64,000 nucleotides of DNA from Escherichia phage vB_EcoM_P54: the sequence record PV390658.1. One strand, given 5' to 3'. The position numbers and the translations under genes are program-made. Each line of letters opens with the position of its first letter. Within the stretch, counting starts at the first letter, position 1. The notes beneath the pieces were generated by a model. The model worked only from the letters and a program-made list of their open reading frames with translations, was not told the DNA's origin and did no database searches. Positions 49,839 through 55,490 of this stretch are shown here, one piece after another.

Positions 49839-49914
49839 TGGAGAATCCGAAGGGACTCGAACCCTTATAAACCTGTTTTGCAGACAGGCACATAGCCATT
49901 TCTGTCACGGATTC
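49839..49914 (-). tRNA. tRNA-Cys (anticodon GCA)
   Basis: Manual fold: acceptor GAATCCG/CGGATTC, T-arm GGGTTCGAGTCCC, anticodon loop CTGCAAA, CCA encoded. Confidence 0.75.
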
Positions 49915-49918
49915 AAAT

Positions 49919-50011
49919 TGGAGGAAGATACCAGACTTGAACTGGTACACCGATTTCTCAGCTACTGGCAGTTTAGCAAACTGCTCCCTTACCTTTTAGG
50001 GTTAATCTTCC
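49919..50011 (-). tRNA. tRNA-Ser (anticodon GCU), long variable arm
   Basis: 93 nt; acceptor GGAAGAT/ATCTTCC, anticodon stem GCAGT/ACTGC with loop TTGCTAA, long extra arm, CCA encoded. Confidence 0.7.
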
Positions 50012-50012
50012 G

Positions 50013-50747
50013 TTATTTCTGTAATGCGTTCTTCATTTCTGGTGTTGCAATAGTGTCAATTACACCAGTTTTACAAGCATCATCAAACCAGTCTGGTAAG
50101 ATACCTGCTAAGAACCCATTGATATTCGTTTTAAGGTACTCTGCAATAAGGGCAGCTTCTTCTTCAATCATCTGCACAACTTCATCTGCATAAGCTGTAA
50201 TCTTTGAGATACCTTCATTAATCTTGCTAACAGCTTGGTTAGCTGAATCAGAAATAGTATCAAGACCTTCATCAATAGCATCTTGTAAGTCACTTAATAC
50301 ACCGTTAACACTGTCTAGTGTGCTGTTAATTGTGTCAATAGCTTTTTGACCATACTCTGTAGCAACACCCATAATACCACTAAATGGTGTACAACCAACT
50401 TGCTCTCCTGCTGCACCCATAACATTGGAATATCCTTTTGCTACCTGCATACGTGATGAAAACTCATCAATTGATTTTTGACCGTAATCTGTCAATGTCT
50501 TAGTGGTTGATGTAGTGCTTGTCAGACTCGTTGTAAAGCTGTTAAGCAGAACTGTTGTAAGTCCAGCAGCAATAAGCTTATCCTTTATTGTAGGGTCTGT
50601 TACAGAGCTAATAGAGCTTACAAGTGATGTAGAGGCAGCTACTGTTCCACCGAGAACTGCTGCACCAGTAATAAGGGGATTAGAAAACCCTCTACCGGTT
50701 TTTAAGAGATTAAAAATCTCCTTACCTTGTTCTGTCATCTCTTTCAT
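50013..50747 (-). CDS. hypothetical Ser/Thr-rich protein (~244 aa) inside the tRNA cluster
   Basis: ORF track 50013..50810 would overlap tRNA-Phe; start moved to ATG 50747 (MKEMTEQ) with AAAGGTG RBS. Confidence 0.4.
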   Translation of the reverse strand: MKEMTEQGKEIFNLLKTGRGFSNPLITGAAVLGGTVAASTSLVSSISSVTDPTIKDKLIAAGLTTVLLNSFTTSLTSTTSTTKTLTDYGQKSIDEFSSRMQVAKGYSNVMGAAGEQVGCTPFSGIMGVATEYGQKAIDTINSTLDSVNGVLSDLQDAIDEGLDTISDSANQAVSKINEGISKITAYADEVVQMIEEEAALIAEYLKTNINGFLAGILPDWFDDACKTGVIDTIATPEMKNALQK

Positions 50748-50762
50748 TAAGCACCTTTGAAA

Positions 50763-50838
50763 TTGGTAGTCCAGTGGGATTTGAACCCTCTTCTCATGTT
50801 TTTCAGACACGCGCTTTAACCATATAAGCTACTTGGAC
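50763..50838 (-). tRNA. tRNA-Phe (anticodon GAA)
   Basis: T-loop TTCAAAT, anticodon loop CTGAAAA, CCA encoded. Confidence 0.7.
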
Positions 50839-50844
50839 TATAAA

Positions 50845-50920
50845 TTGGGGTGACCTACGGGATTTGAACCCGCATAGACCATGTTCACAGCATGGGTCAT
50901 TACCATTTATGATAAGGCCA
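50845..50920 (-). tRNA. tRNA-His (anticodon GUG)
   Basis: T-arm GCGGGTTCAAATCCCGT, anticodon stem CCATG/CATGG with loop CTGTGAA, CCA encoded. Confidence 0.75.
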
Positions 50921-50951
50921 CATTTAAGGACTCTCGTAAGAATCCTTAGAA

Positions 50952-51027
50952 GTGGCAGCGGCATAAGGATTTGAACCTTAATAAGACAGCTTCAGAGACT
51001 GCTGCATTGCCAGTTATGCTATACCGC
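50952..51027 (-). tRNA. tRNA-Gln (anticodon CUG), tentative
   Basis: T-arm AAGGTTCAAATCCTT; anticodon loop CTCTGAA with two G-U pairs in the stem; CCA encoded. Confidence 0.6.
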
Positions 51028-51032
51028 TAAAT

Positions 51033-51111
51033 TTGGTACTCCATATCGGATTCGAACCGATACATAACACAGATTTTAAGTCTGGCCTCTCTGCCAATTG
51101 GAGTAATGGAG
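51033..51111 (-). tRNA. tRNA with anticodon UAA (Leu by anticodon, but short variable arm)
   Basis: T-arm ATCGGTTCGAATCCGAT, anticodon loop CTTAAAA; 5' boundary ambiguous (51103 or 51111). Confidence 0.55.
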
Positions 51112-51113
51112 CA

Positions 51114-51189
51114 TTGGCGGGGGATGTTGGAATTGAACCAACTTCTTCGATTTCAAAGACCGAGGTTTTAACCTTGTAAACTAATCCCC
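51114..51189 (-). tRNA. tRNA-Gln (anticodon UUG)
   Basis: T-loop TTCAATT, anticodon stem TCGGT/ATCGA with loop CTTTGAA, CCA encoded. Confidence 0.65.
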
Positions 51190-51198
51190 TTTAAATCT

Positions 51199-51756
51199 TT
51201 ACTTTCTTAGTGGATGAATAAAGAATGCCAACATAACTCTTTCCCTTGAGAATGCTCTTTCTTCTGGGACAACACTTTTAAGTTTCCATCCAACATAAAT
51301 TCTCCAGTAGAATTGTTTACCAAAGATTTTAATTGATGGGATAAAAGCGAATAATCCCCAAGCATTACTGTTCCACATTAGGAGATAACCTGTCTGATTA
51401 TCTTCAGGGTTAGAACTTACATTGATATTACCTTTCCACTTAGTAACATCTTTTACATCTCTTCCTAACACATGGTAAGAGAAGTTATAGGCTTTGTTTC
51501 TCCAGAGCCAACCAACTCTCTGCATATAGACACCAAGCTTACCAATCTTTCTAATCTTAGCCCATCGTTCGACATGACCTTTATCACCATCAATTGGGTT
51601 GTCATATGTCTCCATCCATCTGAAGCCGAAAGGTAAGTGTCCTTTCTTCTCACTGTAAAATGGAACTACGAAAGGTGCTAAGATAACTGCTAGGATTGCT
51701 GCGAATGGTTCTAACAAAGCTAAGAAAATCCATGAAACATATTTTAAGTATCTCAT
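51199..51756 (-). CDS. hypothetical membrane protein (185 aa) inside the tRNA cluster
   Basis: Hydrophobic N-terminus WIFLALLEPFAAILAVILAPFVVPF; Trp/Lys-rich. Confidence 0.45.
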   Translation of the reverse strand: MRYLKYVSWIFLALLEPFAAILAVILAPFVVPFYSEKKGHLPFGFRWMETYDNPIDGDKGHVERWAKIRKIGKLGVYMQRVGWLWRNKAYNFSYHVLGRDVKDVTKWKGNINVSSNPEDNQTGYLLMWNSNAWGLFAFIPSIKIFGKQFYWRIYVGWKLKSVVPEERAFSRERVMLAFFIHPLRK

Positions 51757-54248: not shown

Positions 54249-54323
54249 TTGGTTGTAGGTGAGGGTATCGAACCCTCTTCTAACGGTTATCAGCCGTTTG
54301 CATTACCATTTATGCTAACCCAC
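54249..54323 (-). tRNA. tRNA-Ile (anticodon GAU)
   Basis: T-arm GAGGGTTCGATACCCTC, anticodon stem AACGG/CCGTT with loop CTGATAA, CCA encoded. Confidence 0.75.
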
Positions 54324-54325
54324 AA

Positions 54326-54402
54326 TTGGAGGTTCAGATGGGAATCGAACCCACATTCATAGGGCTTATGAAACCCCTGCATTACCTTATCTGCGACTGA
54401 AC
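54326..54402 (-). tRNA. tRNA-Met (anticodon CAU)
   Basis: Acceptor GGTTCAG/CTGAACC, T-loop TTCGATT, anticodon loop TTCATAA, CCA encoded. Confidence 0.65.
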
Positions 54403-54406
54403 CATA

Positions 54407-54482
54407 TTGGTAGAAGTGGAGGGATTCGAACCCATCGCCTGTCAGATTAAAAGTCTGCCGCATCACCATTCTGCTACACTTC
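54407..54482 (-). tRNA. tRNA-Lys (anticodon UUU)
   Basis: T-loop TTCGAAT, anticodon loop CTTTTAA, CCA encoded. Confidence 0.65.
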
Positions 54483-54486
54483 CATT

Positions 54487-54628
54487 AAATTATCTTTGTA
54501 GATAAGCTACCCAGACTTGCTTAAGGTCTGTAGCGATGTGTCTTTTCGGGTTAAATCTAGAATCTACCCTTTCACCTTTGTGGTCGCATACTCACAGGGA
54601 AGCTTAATAACTTATCTACAAAGATAAT
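54487..54628. repeat. 19 bp perfect inverted repeat (AATTATCTTTGTAGATAAG / CTTATCTACAAAGATAATT) enclosing a 104 bp core
   Basis: Left arm 54487-54505 and right arm 54610-54628 are exact reverse complements; lies between tRNA-Lys(UUU) and an orphan T-arm. Confidence 0.8.
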
Positions 54629-54909
54629 TACCAGACCGTTGTTTATCATCTTAAGTGCTACCATTACACCAACTCGACATCTGCCGAGTGAAGGAATCGA
54701 ACCTTCGCCTTTTCTTTACCGAGAAATAGATTGTTTAAGTTTTGCTGTAAACGGTCTTCTGTAAATTTGTTGAGCCAGACCAAGTTTTAAATTTTTCAAA
54801 ATTAAATTGGCTTGAAATTTTAAGTAACTTGCTGTATTTGGTCTTCTGCTCCTTTAAAGGATACTCGTAAGAACCCTTTAAGGGAGGGGCTAAATAGCCC
54901 TCTCAAAAT

Positions 54910-54997
54910 TGGTGTGCCGTGTAGGAGTCGAACCTACCGAGTCTCAATGACAAGGGATTTACAGTCCCCACCGCTACCATCTACGGGATAACGACAC
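54910..54997 (-). tRNA. tRNA-Tyr (anticodon GUA), long variable arm
   Basis: 88 nt; anticodon stem GGGA/TCCC with loop CTGTAAA; long extra arm; T-arm GTAGGTTCGACTCCTAC; CCA encoded. Confidence 0.7.
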
Positions 54998-55006
54998 ATT
55001 TAAATT

Positions 55007-55083
55007 TGGCGGTTAGTCAGGGATTCGAACCCTGTGCCATTCGCTTAACAGGCGACCGCACATACCTTATGTGCTTCCTAACC
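55007..55083 (-). tRNA. tRNA-Asn (anticodon GUU)
   Basis: T-arm CAGGGTTCGAATCCCTG, D-stem GCAC/GTGC, anticodon loop CTGTTAA, CCA encoded. Confidence 0.7.
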
Positions 55084-55160
55084 TTAATACATTGCCAGAC
55101 CGTGTTTTTTCTTTTATCCGCAAAAAGTATTTTGTTGCTGAATACGGTCTTCTGCAAAAT

Positions 55161-55237
55161 TGGAGGCGGGTGCAGGAGTCGAACCTGCCGATACCATGCT
55201 AATGAGACATGTGAGACGCCCTTTCTCTATACCCGCA
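55161..55237 (-). tRNA. tRNA with anticodon CAU (second copy; Met, initiator or Ile-lysidine type)
   Basis: T-arm GCAGGTTCGACTCCTGC, anticodon stem CATGT/GCATG with loop CTCATTA, CCA encoded. Confidence 0.6.
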
Positions 55238-55328
55238 ATTCTTAATGACCAGACCAAATCTCTTCTTTGTCCGATTTACCTTCAGATGTATAAGATTAAG
55301 TTTGCTGTAATTGGTCTTCTGTCAAAAC

Positions 55329-55406
55329 TGGCGTTCCAGAAGGGATTTGAACCCTCAGATATCCACTTTGAAAGAGTGGTGACTATACCATTTTGTCTAC
55401 TGGAAC
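55329..55406 (-). tRNA. tRNA-Glu (anticodon UUC)
   Basis: Acceptor GTTCCAG/CTGGAAC, T-loop TTCAAAT, anticodon stem CCACT/AGTGG with loop CTTTCAA, CCA encoded. Confidence 0.75.
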
Positions 55407-55413
55407 ATTAATT

Positions 55414-55490
55414 TGGTCTCTGTTGGAGGACTTGAACCTCCGGCCTTACCGCCCCAAACGGAACGCTCTACCAAGCTGAGCTAAACAGAG
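55414..55490 (-). tRNA. tRNA-Pro (anticodon UGG)
   Basis: Acceptor CTCTGTT/AACAGAG, canonical D-arm GCTC-AGCTTGGTA-GAGC, T-arm GGAGGTTCAAGTCCTCC, anticodon loop TTTGGGG, CCA encoded. Confidence 0.75.

Follow-up and report, generated by a model that had tools for sequence, protein, structure and literature searches.

What does a large phage tRNA operon encode between its tRNA genes, and do all of its RNAs serve translation? This question is raised by a 64,000-nucleotide (nt) stretch of the genome of Escherichia phage vB_EcoM_P54 (sequence record PV390658.1), hereafter the window, in which a sequence-only reading had placed a large tRNA operon of about 26 genes, with atypical members that could be decoys or have non-translational roles. 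Analysis of the complete 64-kb window with ARAGORN gave 24 tRNA genes at exactly 49839-55490, which confirmed the operon. All of them are on the minus strand, as is every other gene, RNA and hairpin located in the window below. Counting in addition an Arg(UCU)-like gene (53802-53883), a Trp-like locus (53219-53301) and a permuted element (54627-54763), the interval holds about 27 tRNA-shaped loci, close to the number first proposed.

The operon belongs to a myovirus of the Felix O1 type (Felixounavirus) and corresponds to the published Felix O1 tRNA region (PMC3185647). The DNA of the window is 96-99% identical to that of Felixounavirus phages, and the whole interval is 96-97% identical to Felix O1, vB_EcoM_D4 (hereafter D4) and NRG857CP1, one of its sub-regions reaching 99.4% identity with Salmonella phage SEP1. 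The tRNA genes are in the same order as in Felix O1, D4 and Mooglevirus Sf14, and published tRNA counts are 22 for Felix O1 (PMC3185647), 23 for wV8 (PMC2674420) and 26 for Sf14 (PMC12482277). The operon as such is already known; what this analysis adds are RNAs resembling Y RNAs in its spacers, the Arg(UCU) RNA and leucine tRNAs of class-I-like appearance. Taken as a whole, the locus is probably best explained as a Felix O1-type tRNA operon combined with a Ro60-fold protein gene, Y-like RNAs and an Arg(UCU) cassette.

Y-like RNA candidates downstream of a Ro60-fold protein gene

The operon is headed by an open reading frame (ORF) of 471 amino acids (aa; 55656-57071), which lies 166 nt upstream of tRNA-Pro and which GenBank records, for this ORF and its relatives, label as 'RNA-binding protein', 'vWFA protein' or 'hypothetical'. 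Pfam assigned DUF2828 and DUF7788 to its product, and nothing else. An AlphaFold model built from 37 homologs (predicted local distance difference test score, pLDDT, 87) predicts a helical-repeat ring and a vWA domain with the MIDAS motif DxSxS, whose residues are invariant in the 37-homolog alignment, and the top 12 Foldseek matches in the PDB were all Ro60/TROVE structures. As judged from this model, the product is a predicted Ro60-fold protein without detectable Ro60 sequence similarity. The family is present in 709 phage records. Among its members are the 'Ro-like RNA binding proteins' of mycobacteriophages (31-34% identity), to which Pfam likewise assigns DUF2828/DUF7788. The literature that names DUF2828 is nearly all on plants (potato, wheat, poplar and Casuarina); uncharacterised eukaryotic relatives of the Ro60-fold family therefore exist.

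A similar arrangement has been described for Bas63, an 87-kb Felixounavirus. According to the PhageMaP preprint (PMC11482910), its protein gp130 is structurally Ro60-like, is encoded directly upstream of the tRNA genes and counters the defence gene ppl. Judged from position and from the Ro60-like description rather than from a protein alignment, 55656-57071 is likely the ortholog of Bas63 gp130. The authors of that study also proposed that the tRNA region contains Y RNAs, guessing that some of the annotated tRNA genes represent them (PMC11482910), whereas the candidates found here are spacers or mis-annotated mini-ORFs.

These candidates came to light as a repeat. The 19-nt motif AGAAGACC-N5-CAGCAA occurs four times on the minus strand, a count that none of 100 shuffles reached, and the four copies (repeat family D11) are each followed after 50-125 nt by GGUCUG. 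Their common layout consists, on the 5' side, of an outer stem of 4 base pairs (bp), AGA, AGACC(N2-3), N(1-2) and NCAGCAA, and, on the 3' side, of an A-rich strand, the second strand of the inner stem, a G and the second strand of the outer stem. The module that they share is a closing stem of 7-8 bp that starts with A-G and ends with C-U-G, with NCAGCAA directly after it. Copies a (55245-55322), b (55091-55155) and c (54771-54849) are short. Copy a has UGAC/GUCA as outer stem, an AGA/G internal loop and AGACCAA/UUGGUCU as inner stem, followed by UUACAGCAA; in copy b the two stems are UUGC/GCAA and AGACCGU/ACGGUCU, with AUUCAGCAA, and in copy c they are GAGC/GCUC and AGACCAA/UUGGUCU, with AUACAGCAA. 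The four outer stems (UGAC/GUCA, UUGC/GCAA, GAGC/GCUC and UUAC/GUAA) differ yet always pair, and in Felix O1 and D4 the outer stem of copy b is UUAC/GUAA, a compensatory change.

Copy d (54627-54763) is long and of YrlA type. Its closing stem, AGACCGUU/AACGGUCU, leads into UACAGCAA and a small hairpin, followed in order by a T-arm (GAAGG-UUCGAUU-CCUUC), an acceptor-like hairpin (ACUCGGC-AGAU-GUCGAGU) and a D-arm (GUGU-AAUGGUA-GCAC, with GG in the loop), then ...AUAAAC. The acceptor-like helix has 7 bp and is closed by a 4-nt loop, leaving no free 3' end; copy d is a circularly permuted tRNA. The idea that the operon includes RNAs with non-translational roles gains support from this tRNA mimic, but not for the atypical tRNAs that had been listed, since the clearest such mimic is the permuted domain of a Y-like RNA that lies between tRNA genes and by the Ro60-fold gene.

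The first Y-like RNA begins 334 nt downstream of the Ro60-like gene, on the same strand. Each of the four starts 3-6 nt after the CCA end of a tRNA and ends about 7-10 nt before the next tRNA, and in GenBank records these spacers are blank or hold ORFs of 30-40 aa. Short ORFs of 30-67 aa that are annotated as 'hypothetical' in relatives (53190-53393, 54572-54664 and 54664-54783) overlap the Trp-like locus and Y-like RNA d, and are therefore likely mis-annotated RNA genes.

Is this RNA family confined to Felix O1-type phages? We sampled 80 loci around DUF2828 genes from IMG/VR, most of whose proteins are 40-48% identical to that of the window. The exact Felix-type motif (AGAAGACC...GGTCT) gave nothing useful in distant loci, and the family became visible through a search for the permuted-tRNA shape. 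A strict descriptor of this shape gave 21 matches, one in the window and 20 in IMG/VR and two GenBank loci, all of them on the strand of the gene, and none in shuffles; a relaxed version, with about 6 matches per shuffle, was dropped. Ten of the 11 candidates examined have a closing stem of 7-10 bp whose 5' strand ends 0-2 nt before NC(A/C)GCA, and the stem sequence is different in every one of these candidates; the only 6-bp stem is that of locus L057.

A covariance model (R1) was made from two gap-free metagenomic sequences of unrelated phage loci, and the rest were aligned by Infernal, a route chosen after MAFFT alignments of the long RNAs had misplaced the 3' stem. R1 detected copy d with 37.6 bits (E = 3e-5 in a 1.9-Mb search), and all of its matches (51/51) were on the strand of the DUF2828 gene. 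In the 17 full-length members, 95% of the pairs are formed, with two-sided changes in 22 of 24 pairs. Their covariation score was 0.93, compared with 0.23 in shuffles (0/500 reached the observed value) and 0.07-0.15 in slid controls, with the reservation that the alignment was fitted to the model, which flatters covariation somewhat; the T, acceptor and D helices and the closing stem all covary. An R1 match to a Val/Leu tRNA dimer (24 bits) has a mismatched closing stem and represents a false-positive type.

On the short copies R1 was weak (E 0.04 to 2), and a separate short model (R3) was therefore trained on 16 short elements, which were taken from 15 non-Felix loci. These training elements had been picked by a descriptor that requires the stem, so that their 100% pairing is partly circular; what counts as evidence is the recovery of the window copies by R3, not the training-set pairing itself. 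In an unfiltered scan of the whole window, the four copies were the top four matches: b with 42.8 bits (E = 9e-8), a with 35.9 (E = 4e-6), c with 29.2 (E = 2e-4) and d with 27.5 (E = 5e-4). The fifth match, at 13845-13910 (minus strand; 20.4 bits, E = 0.026), has one mismatched stem pair and is probably due to chance. In mycobacteriophage Samty, one site just 3' of the Ro-like gene matched both R1 (53.9 bits) and Rfam YrlA (RF02553; 37.9 bits, threshold 69). Because both models match this same site, we infer that the Y-like family is a divergent YrlA-type branch; in 10 other DUF2828 loci, RF02553 gave no match.

A descriptor of the shared module, applied to 75 loci, matched 70 times on the gene strand; the opposite strand had 8 matches and shuffles had 4. 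At least one match was found in 44 of the 75 loci, 49 of the 70 matches lie within 600 nt of the gene, and 34 of these 75 unrelated phage loci have a module at most 600 nt from the DUF2828 gene. Many module-bearing loci have no tRNA genes within 6 kb, which indicates that the module accompanies the protein gene rather than the tRNAs. In about 40% of the sampled loci, the DUF2828 gene heads a tRNA cluster, and 358 of 361 tRNAs are on its strand; this position suggests a possible link to tRNA metabolism or to tRNA-targeting defences. The same elements follow the DUF2828 genes of Sf14, which has an ortholog of copy a, and of Klebsiella phage FBKp34.

The distribution of the module bears on another explanation, namely that the four repeats either act in cis on the tRNA transcript, as terminators, attenuators or stems for RNase III/E/P processing, or are miniature repeats of a selfish kind. 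Such elements would fit with the location of the repeats, each of which directly follows a tRNA CCA end and precedes another tRNA, with the modest z-scores of their single-sequence folds (-1.0 to -2.0) and with the other hairpins that fill the same operon. However, the module recurs by DUF2828 genes, nearly always on the gene strand and in many loci without tRNAs, no T-runs follow the stems, and one copy has a full tRNA-like domain, as YrlA does. In addition, the single-stranded CAGCAA is conserved whereas the stem sequences change freely, a contrast which suggests that a factor recognises these RNAs. We consider it quite improbable that the repeats are cis-acting or selfish elements. Judging from their sequences, copies a-d are Y-like RNA candidates and look like partners of the Ro60-like protein.

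Several further elements resemble these RNAs. An environmental phage (L014) carries three tandem YrlA-type RNAs (5280-5404, 5419-5541 and 5551-5676 of its locus) upstream of the DUF2828 gene, as well as short forms and a non-canonical Arg RNA (10227-10308). In the FBKp34 locus (L125), a 114-nt 'tRNA-Asp' (6003-6116) directly after a normal tRNA-Asp overlaps a descriptor match at 6050-6123 and may be a mis-called composite element. Within the window, the spacer between tRNA-Thr and tRNA-Val (52362-52448; z = -3.7) contains GAAGACCGUAACAAA, which resembles a decayed Y-like 5' module (AGAAGACCGUUUACAGCAA). Small hairpins of the form AAGG(G/A)UUCUUACGAG..UCCUU recur at 54852-54883 and 50921-50952, and at about 9035-9066 in a sister phage (L003); in their 5' half they agree with the beginning of a Y-like RNA from L014, an unrelated phage (AAGGAUUCUUACAGCAA). 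Such hairpins may be reduced versions of the module, either minimal or collapsed, or else signals for processing. Rfam, searched at gathering and at permissive thresholds over the window and 11 related loci, returned tRNA plus chance-level families and no YrlA. Weak matches of copies a and b to 'Dicty_Class_I_RNA' were discarded, as the stem-plus-loop shape alone explains them.

The Arg(UCU)-like RNA and its HNH cassette

The second unusual component is the gene that the sequence-only reading had noticed for lacking a normal D-arm. It corresponds to the Arg(UCU)-like gene at 53802-53883, which is supported by the Rfam tRNA model (RF00005; 31.7 bits), by its fold and by covariation. RF00005 reached its gathering score at 23 loci of the window, that is, at 22 ARAGORN genes and at 53805-53883, and the two ARAGORN genes below this score are Tyr 54910-54997 and Met 55161-55237. 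The Arg(UCU) RNA has normal acceptor, anticodon (loop CUUCUAA) and T arms and an A73-CCA end. In place of a D-arm, U8-A9-UCUC-A14 leads at once into the anticodon stem, and an invariant segment of 23 nt, CGUUAAYCGAGUAANUGGAGUAU, lies before the T arm. Either of two GAG triplets could pair with C11-U12-C13.

BLAST found this RNA at 83-89% identity in a jumbo Salmonella phage and in members of Asteriusvirus, Stephanstirmvirinae, Vequintavirinae, Demerecviridae and Straboviridae. Its family is present in at least seven phage taxa, and a pattern search located it in 33 IMG/VR contigs; elsewhere it is annotated inconsistently, as Arg, tRNA-TERM, Undet or OTHER, or left unannotated. Twenty-one distinct sequences were found, 20 of which align without gaps. 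The alignment is 99% paired, with two-sided changes in 13 of 17 pairs and three covarying helices, and its covariation score was 0.765 compared with 0.231 in shuffles. Model R2 scored members above 100 bits (106 for the window) and ordinary tRNAs below 40, and a search with it for divergent relatives found none between about 100 and 39 bits.

Directly 3' of the gene is an HNH endonuclease ORF (53439-53831, likely start near 53786; weak Pfam HNH), which is annotated as HNH in D4 and Felix O1. The sister phage L003 has a canonical 77-nt tRNA-Arg(UCU) (9070-9146) in the same slot, and comparison of the two revealed a clean cassette swap, with the Arg RNA plus HNH in the window (53951-53444) against 9032-9146 in L003. 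Within the genus, the slot is found in three states: canonical (L003), non-canonical alone (L004, L006 and L008) and non-canonical with HNH (the window, D4 and Felix O1). At least four different endonuclease-like ORFs follow the Arg(UCU) gene in different phages and none does so in others, a pattern that fits spread of the RNA by homing. With a canonical tRNA-Arg(UCU) in this slot in the sister phage and AGA as the main Arg codon, the most likely task of the non-canonical RNA is still the decoding of AGA. The authors of the Felix O1 study had expected a tRNA that reads AGA, a codon used in excess, but found none (PMC3185647); what they missed is probably the Arg(UCU)-like RNA, a gene that tRNAscan did not call.

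Homing-endonuclease traffic could also have left the atypical genes (Arg-UCU, Trp-like and the CAU gene with U37) behind as functionless pseudogenes. HNH genes, which occur throughout the cluster, vary from strain to strain, and tRNA-Asp has been lost in this strain, both in keeping with such traffic. Decay is also suggested by the Trp-like locus (53219-53301), the possible CCA-anticodon gene with a 9-nt loop of the sequence-only reading, a weak tRNA-like sequence: it is sub-threshold in Rfam (21 bits, E = 1.2) and is not called by ARAGORN. It folds with the E. coli Trp anticodon loop, CUCCAAA, and ends in G73-CCA, with a C31.A39 mismatch, 3 of 5 T-stem pairs (4 of 5 in the L003 copy) and about 5 extra nt before the D stem. 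Only this genus has the locus, which is probably a relic. For the Arg(UCU) RNA, however, a pseudogene is excluded in practice by the paired and covarying helices and invariant connectors kept in 21 sequences from at least seven taxa, and the CAU/U37 gene is a clean cloverleaf that is conserved in Mooglevirus (PMC12482277). As an account of all the atypical genes, functionless remnants are therefore improbable, and we retain the reading of the Arg(UCU) RNA as a gene that most likely still decodes AGA.

Canonical tRNA genes, codon use and other structured spacers

The 24 ARAGORN genes cover 18 amino acids, with three genes for Leu, two each for Ser, Gln, Lys and Met/CAU, and one each for Cys, Phe, His, Arg(ACG), Val, Thr, Gly, Ala, Ile, Tyr, Asn, Glu and Pro. 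All are supported by Rfam as well, except for tRNA-Tyr and one CAU tRNA, for which the fold (a cloverleaf in the latter) is the second line of evidence. From the head of the operon, they are Pro(UGG) at 55414-55490, Glu(UUC) at 55329-55406, an atypical CAU tRNA at 55161-55237, Asn(GUU) at 55007-55083, Tyr(GUA) at 54910-54997, Lys(UUU) at 54408-54483, a second CAU tRNA at 54327-54403, Ile(GAU) at 54250-54324, Ser(UGA) at 53116-53205, Leu(UAG) at 52783-52860, Lys(CUU) at 52700-52775 and Ala(UGC) at 52618-52693, the latter with G3.U70. They continue with Gly(UCC) at 52537-52611, Thr(UGU) at 52453-52529, Val(UAC) at 52283-52357, Leu(CAA) at 52204-52281, Arg(ACG) at 52014-52089, Gln(UUG) at 51115-51190, Leu(UAA) at 51034-51112, Gln(CUG) at 50953-51028, His(GUG) at 50846-50921, Phe(GAA) at 50764-50839, Ser(GCU) at 49919-50011 and Cys(GCA) at 49839-49914. 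The paired isoacceptors that had been read from the sequence (Lys UUU/CUU, Gln UUG/CUG, Ser GCU/UGA and two CAU) are thus all present. The tRNA-Tyr gene of Felix O1 has been labelled 'pseudo' (PMC3185647).

For each gene, we tabulated the acceptor stem, the discriminator and the anticodon loop and compared the discriminators with the well-known E. coli tRNA identity rules. The discriminator was readable in 23 of the 24 genes, the ARAGORN call for Ser(UGA) having no CCA end, and in 20 of these 23 it is the E. coli type for the gene's own anticodon: A73 in Pro, Tyr, Lys, Ile, Leu, Ala, Thr, Val and Phe, G73 in Glu, Asn, Gln and Arg, U73 in Gly and Cys, and C73 in His, whose first-position G is able to pair with C73 as G-1. 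All anticodon loops have 7 nt and U33, with a purine at position 37 everywhere except in the CAU tRNA at 55161-55237, which has U37.

Long variable arms are present in the two Ser tRNAs and in tRNA-Tyr. The three Leu tRNAs lack this class II feature, in line with the short-arm tRNAs with UAA, CAA and possibly UAG anticodons of the sequence-only reading: they are 78-79 nt long, with variable regions of 5 nt (UAG), 6 nt (CAA) and 7 nt (UAA). They retain A73 and a Leu-type D loop (AAUUGG...). The long arm is reportedly dispensable for E. coli LeuRS, as found by Asahara and co-workers, and because the enzyme is said not to need it, the three short Leu tRNAs may still be charged.

The two CAU tRNAs are harder to assign to elongator Met, initiator or Ile2. 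The atypical one at 55161-55237 has a U1.C72 mismatch, U73 and the loop CUCAUUA with U37; it gave zero Rfam tRNA matches even at E<=10 and folds as a clean cloverleaf. The second (54327-54403) has the loop UUCAUAA, U73 and a paired G1-C72, which shows that it is not of the bacterial initiator type, and neither of the two has the initiator's 1-72 C.A mismatch and three G-C pairs. The C4-G69 and C5-G68 pairs carried by TilS substrates are likewise absent from both. The loop CUCAUUA is also found in Sf14 (PMC12482277).

Counted over 54 ORFs from the window, 41% of the Arg codons are AGA, A/T-ending codons dominate and ATA accounts for only 3% of the Ile codons, and in the tRNA set readers of A-ending codons predominate. 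Given the E. coli-type identity elements and this codon use, we infer that most of the 24 genes are ordinary, chargeable tRNAs that would top up the host pool for A/T-rich codons. The data fit the codon-supplementation view of the Felix O1 and Sf14 papers, and are in line with the suggestion that the set compensates codon bias.

It had also been suggested that the cluster replaces host tRNAs cut by anticodon nucleases, in which case the atypical members (CAU/U37, Arg and short Leu) could be resistant variants or decoys; the same may be considered for other defences that target tRNAs. Several anticodon loops indeed differ from those of the host, for example through U37 in the CAU tRNA (table in PMC12482277), the Arg RNA combines an anticodon loop that never varies with a body that is radically altered, as a decoy or escape variant might, and published examples of phage tRNAs that escape tRNA nucleases can be found through PMC11482910 and PMC12482277. 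The Ro60-like protein encoded next to the cluster is, moreover, likely an anti-defence factor (PMC11482910). Against this, the computational study of Sf14 concluded against escape (PMC12482277), the tRNA genes of Bas63 are mostly non-essential on four laboratory hosts (PMC11482910), most tRNAs of the set are host-like in their identity elements, and no nuclease target is known for the set. Replacement of cleaved tRNAs is compatible with codon supplementation; we regard it as a possible but unlikely explanation of the cluster, and a role of most genes in ordinary translation as the better supported one.

The operon contains other structured elements. Between Y-like RNA d and tRNA-Lys(UUU) there is a very stable hairpin (54486-54632; z = -6.0) with 22-nt arms (95% complementary) around 98 nt, which is 95-99% conserved in Felixounavirus and had no blastn match in Sf14; it could be an RNase III site, a small RNA or a mobile repeat. 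Three more long inverted repeats (52862-52951, 53885-53955 and 54101-54205, with arms of 26, 16 and 27 nt) matched no Rfam family, and a GC-rich hairpin, GAGAGGGCUAUUUAGCCCCUC, is found at about 54878-54905, where relatives have tRNA-Asp. Between the Ro60-fold gene and tRNA-Pro, 55509-55645 contains two sigma-70-like promoter matches (TTGACA...TAATAT and TTGACA...TAAAGT) on the minus strand, a number not above chance, and the best sigma-70-like match (TTGACA-17-TATAGT, 11/12 positions of the consensus) is at 54206-54234 on the same strand.

Proposed function and comparison with known systems

In the mechanism that we regard as most likely, copies a-d would be cut from the polycistronic tRNA transcript by tRNA processing (RNase P and 3' trimming) and would bind the Ro60-like protein through the stem/CAGCAA module. 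Once bound, they would control access to the ring or connect it with enzymes that handle RNA, on the model of Ro60-Y RNA-PNPase particles, and in copy d the tRNA-like domain would serve as the tether. We put forward only tentatively the joint proposal that the Arg(UCU) RNA is a working D-arm-less tRNA and that a-d, matured by the tRNA machinery, program an anti-defence Ro60-like protein.

A number of observations weigh against this interpretation of the locus. The Ro60 similarity is structural only: Pfam TROVE was not matched by the 471-aa protein, and searches of the PDB with phmmer, using the single sequence, and with a 37-member profile gave no match, and no Ro60. Rfam YrlA (RF02553, threshold 69 bits) did not match copy d even at E<=10, and the motif NCAGCAA (ACAGCAA) stands in place of the GNCGAA, CGAA and GGUCCGA of YrlA and Y RNAs (PMC4201824). 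The fitting of the 17-member alignment to its model and the partial circularity of the R3 training set belong here as well. Expression of gp130 alone rescued T7 on ppl hosts (PMC11482910), which indicates that the anti-ppl activity does not require phage RNAs. The connectors of the Arg(UCU) RNA never vary, so that its core pairing is not deducible by covariation. Finally, U73 is not the base expected in the two CAU tRNAs and in Ser(GCU), which makes their charging uncertain.

If the interpretation is correct, the tRNA mimic of copy d would act on tRNAs or on tRNA-targeting defences, and large phage tRNA operons would be tied to an RNA-surveillance particle in about 700 sequenced phages. The spacers supply concrete candidates for the Y RNAs predicted by the 2024 genetic screen in a sister phage, and their consensus (stem, NCAGCAA and A-rich strand, with or without a tRNA-like domain) can be used for annotation. 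The Ro60-Y RNA system would be extended to a family filed as 'domain of unknown function', with the same protein-RNA pairing recurring in many unrelated phages. As for the Arg(UCU) RNA, a D-arm-less decoding tRNA would be unusual in a bacterial system; it would add a new class of structure to the tRNAs that decode outside mitochondria, passed among at least seven unrelated phage lineages, often with homing endonucleases.

Large tRNA operons are familiar from other phages. Those of T4 and T5 are polycistronic and also carry small stable RNAs (T4 species 1 and 2), and in T5 free-standing HNH endonucleases (F-Tfl enzymes) lie among the tRNA genes. We know of no Ro60-like protein beside the tRNA cluster of T4 or T5. 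The closest relatives of the operon described here are the regions of Felix O1 and other Ounavirinae (wV8, Sf14 and Bas63), with which it has in common the order from Pro-Glu-Met-Asn-Tyr to Phe-Ser-Cys, the DUF2828 gene upstream and the terminase gene downstream. Unlike Felix O1, D4 and Sf14, in which tRNA-Asp follows tRNA-Tyr, this strain has no tRNA-Asp. It also carries the non-canonical Arg(UCU) with HNH, whereas L003 has a canonical Arg(UCU) and one of 77 nt is annotated (by tRNAscan-SE) in Sf14. The published descriptions of Felix O1-type operons are silent on Y-like RNAs, on the short variable arms of the Leu tRNAs and on the unusual Arg structure.

The Arg(UCU) RNA, with its acceptor, anticodon and T arms and no D stem-loop in the usual place, is comparable to D-arm-lacking mitochondrial tRNAs such as metazoan mt-tRNA-Ser(AGY) (PMC4013460, PMC7609411). 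It differs in belonging to phages of bacteria, in its long invariant 23-nt segment with UGG between the anticodon and T arms, and in being conserved nearly base for base across unrelated phages.

The Y-like RNAs are best compared with Ro60-Y RNA systems of the YrlA type, in which the RNA has a tRNA-like domain architecture (PMC4201824; bioRxiv 10.1101/312249). Chen et al. 2014 (PMC4201824) place YrlA-like RNAs beside Ro60 genes in several phages, which PMC12135203 gives as mycobacteriophages, CcrColossus and Bacillus phage G, with no Felix O1-type phage named among them; Thermus phage phiLo carries Yrl1/2 (PMC12135203). As in these systems, the window combines a gene for a ring-plus-vWA protein with adjacent small RNAs that have paired ends, and, as in Y RNAs, a conserved single-stranded motif, here NCAGCAA, lies beside the stem. 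Copy d resembles YrlA in its T arm, D arm and closed acceptor stem without a free CCA end, and short and long forms stand side by side, like yrlB and yrlA. Unlike Ro60, the protein belongs to DUF2828/DUF7788 and not to TROVE in Pfam, and, unlike in YrlA systems, the RNAs are embedded in a tRNA operon.

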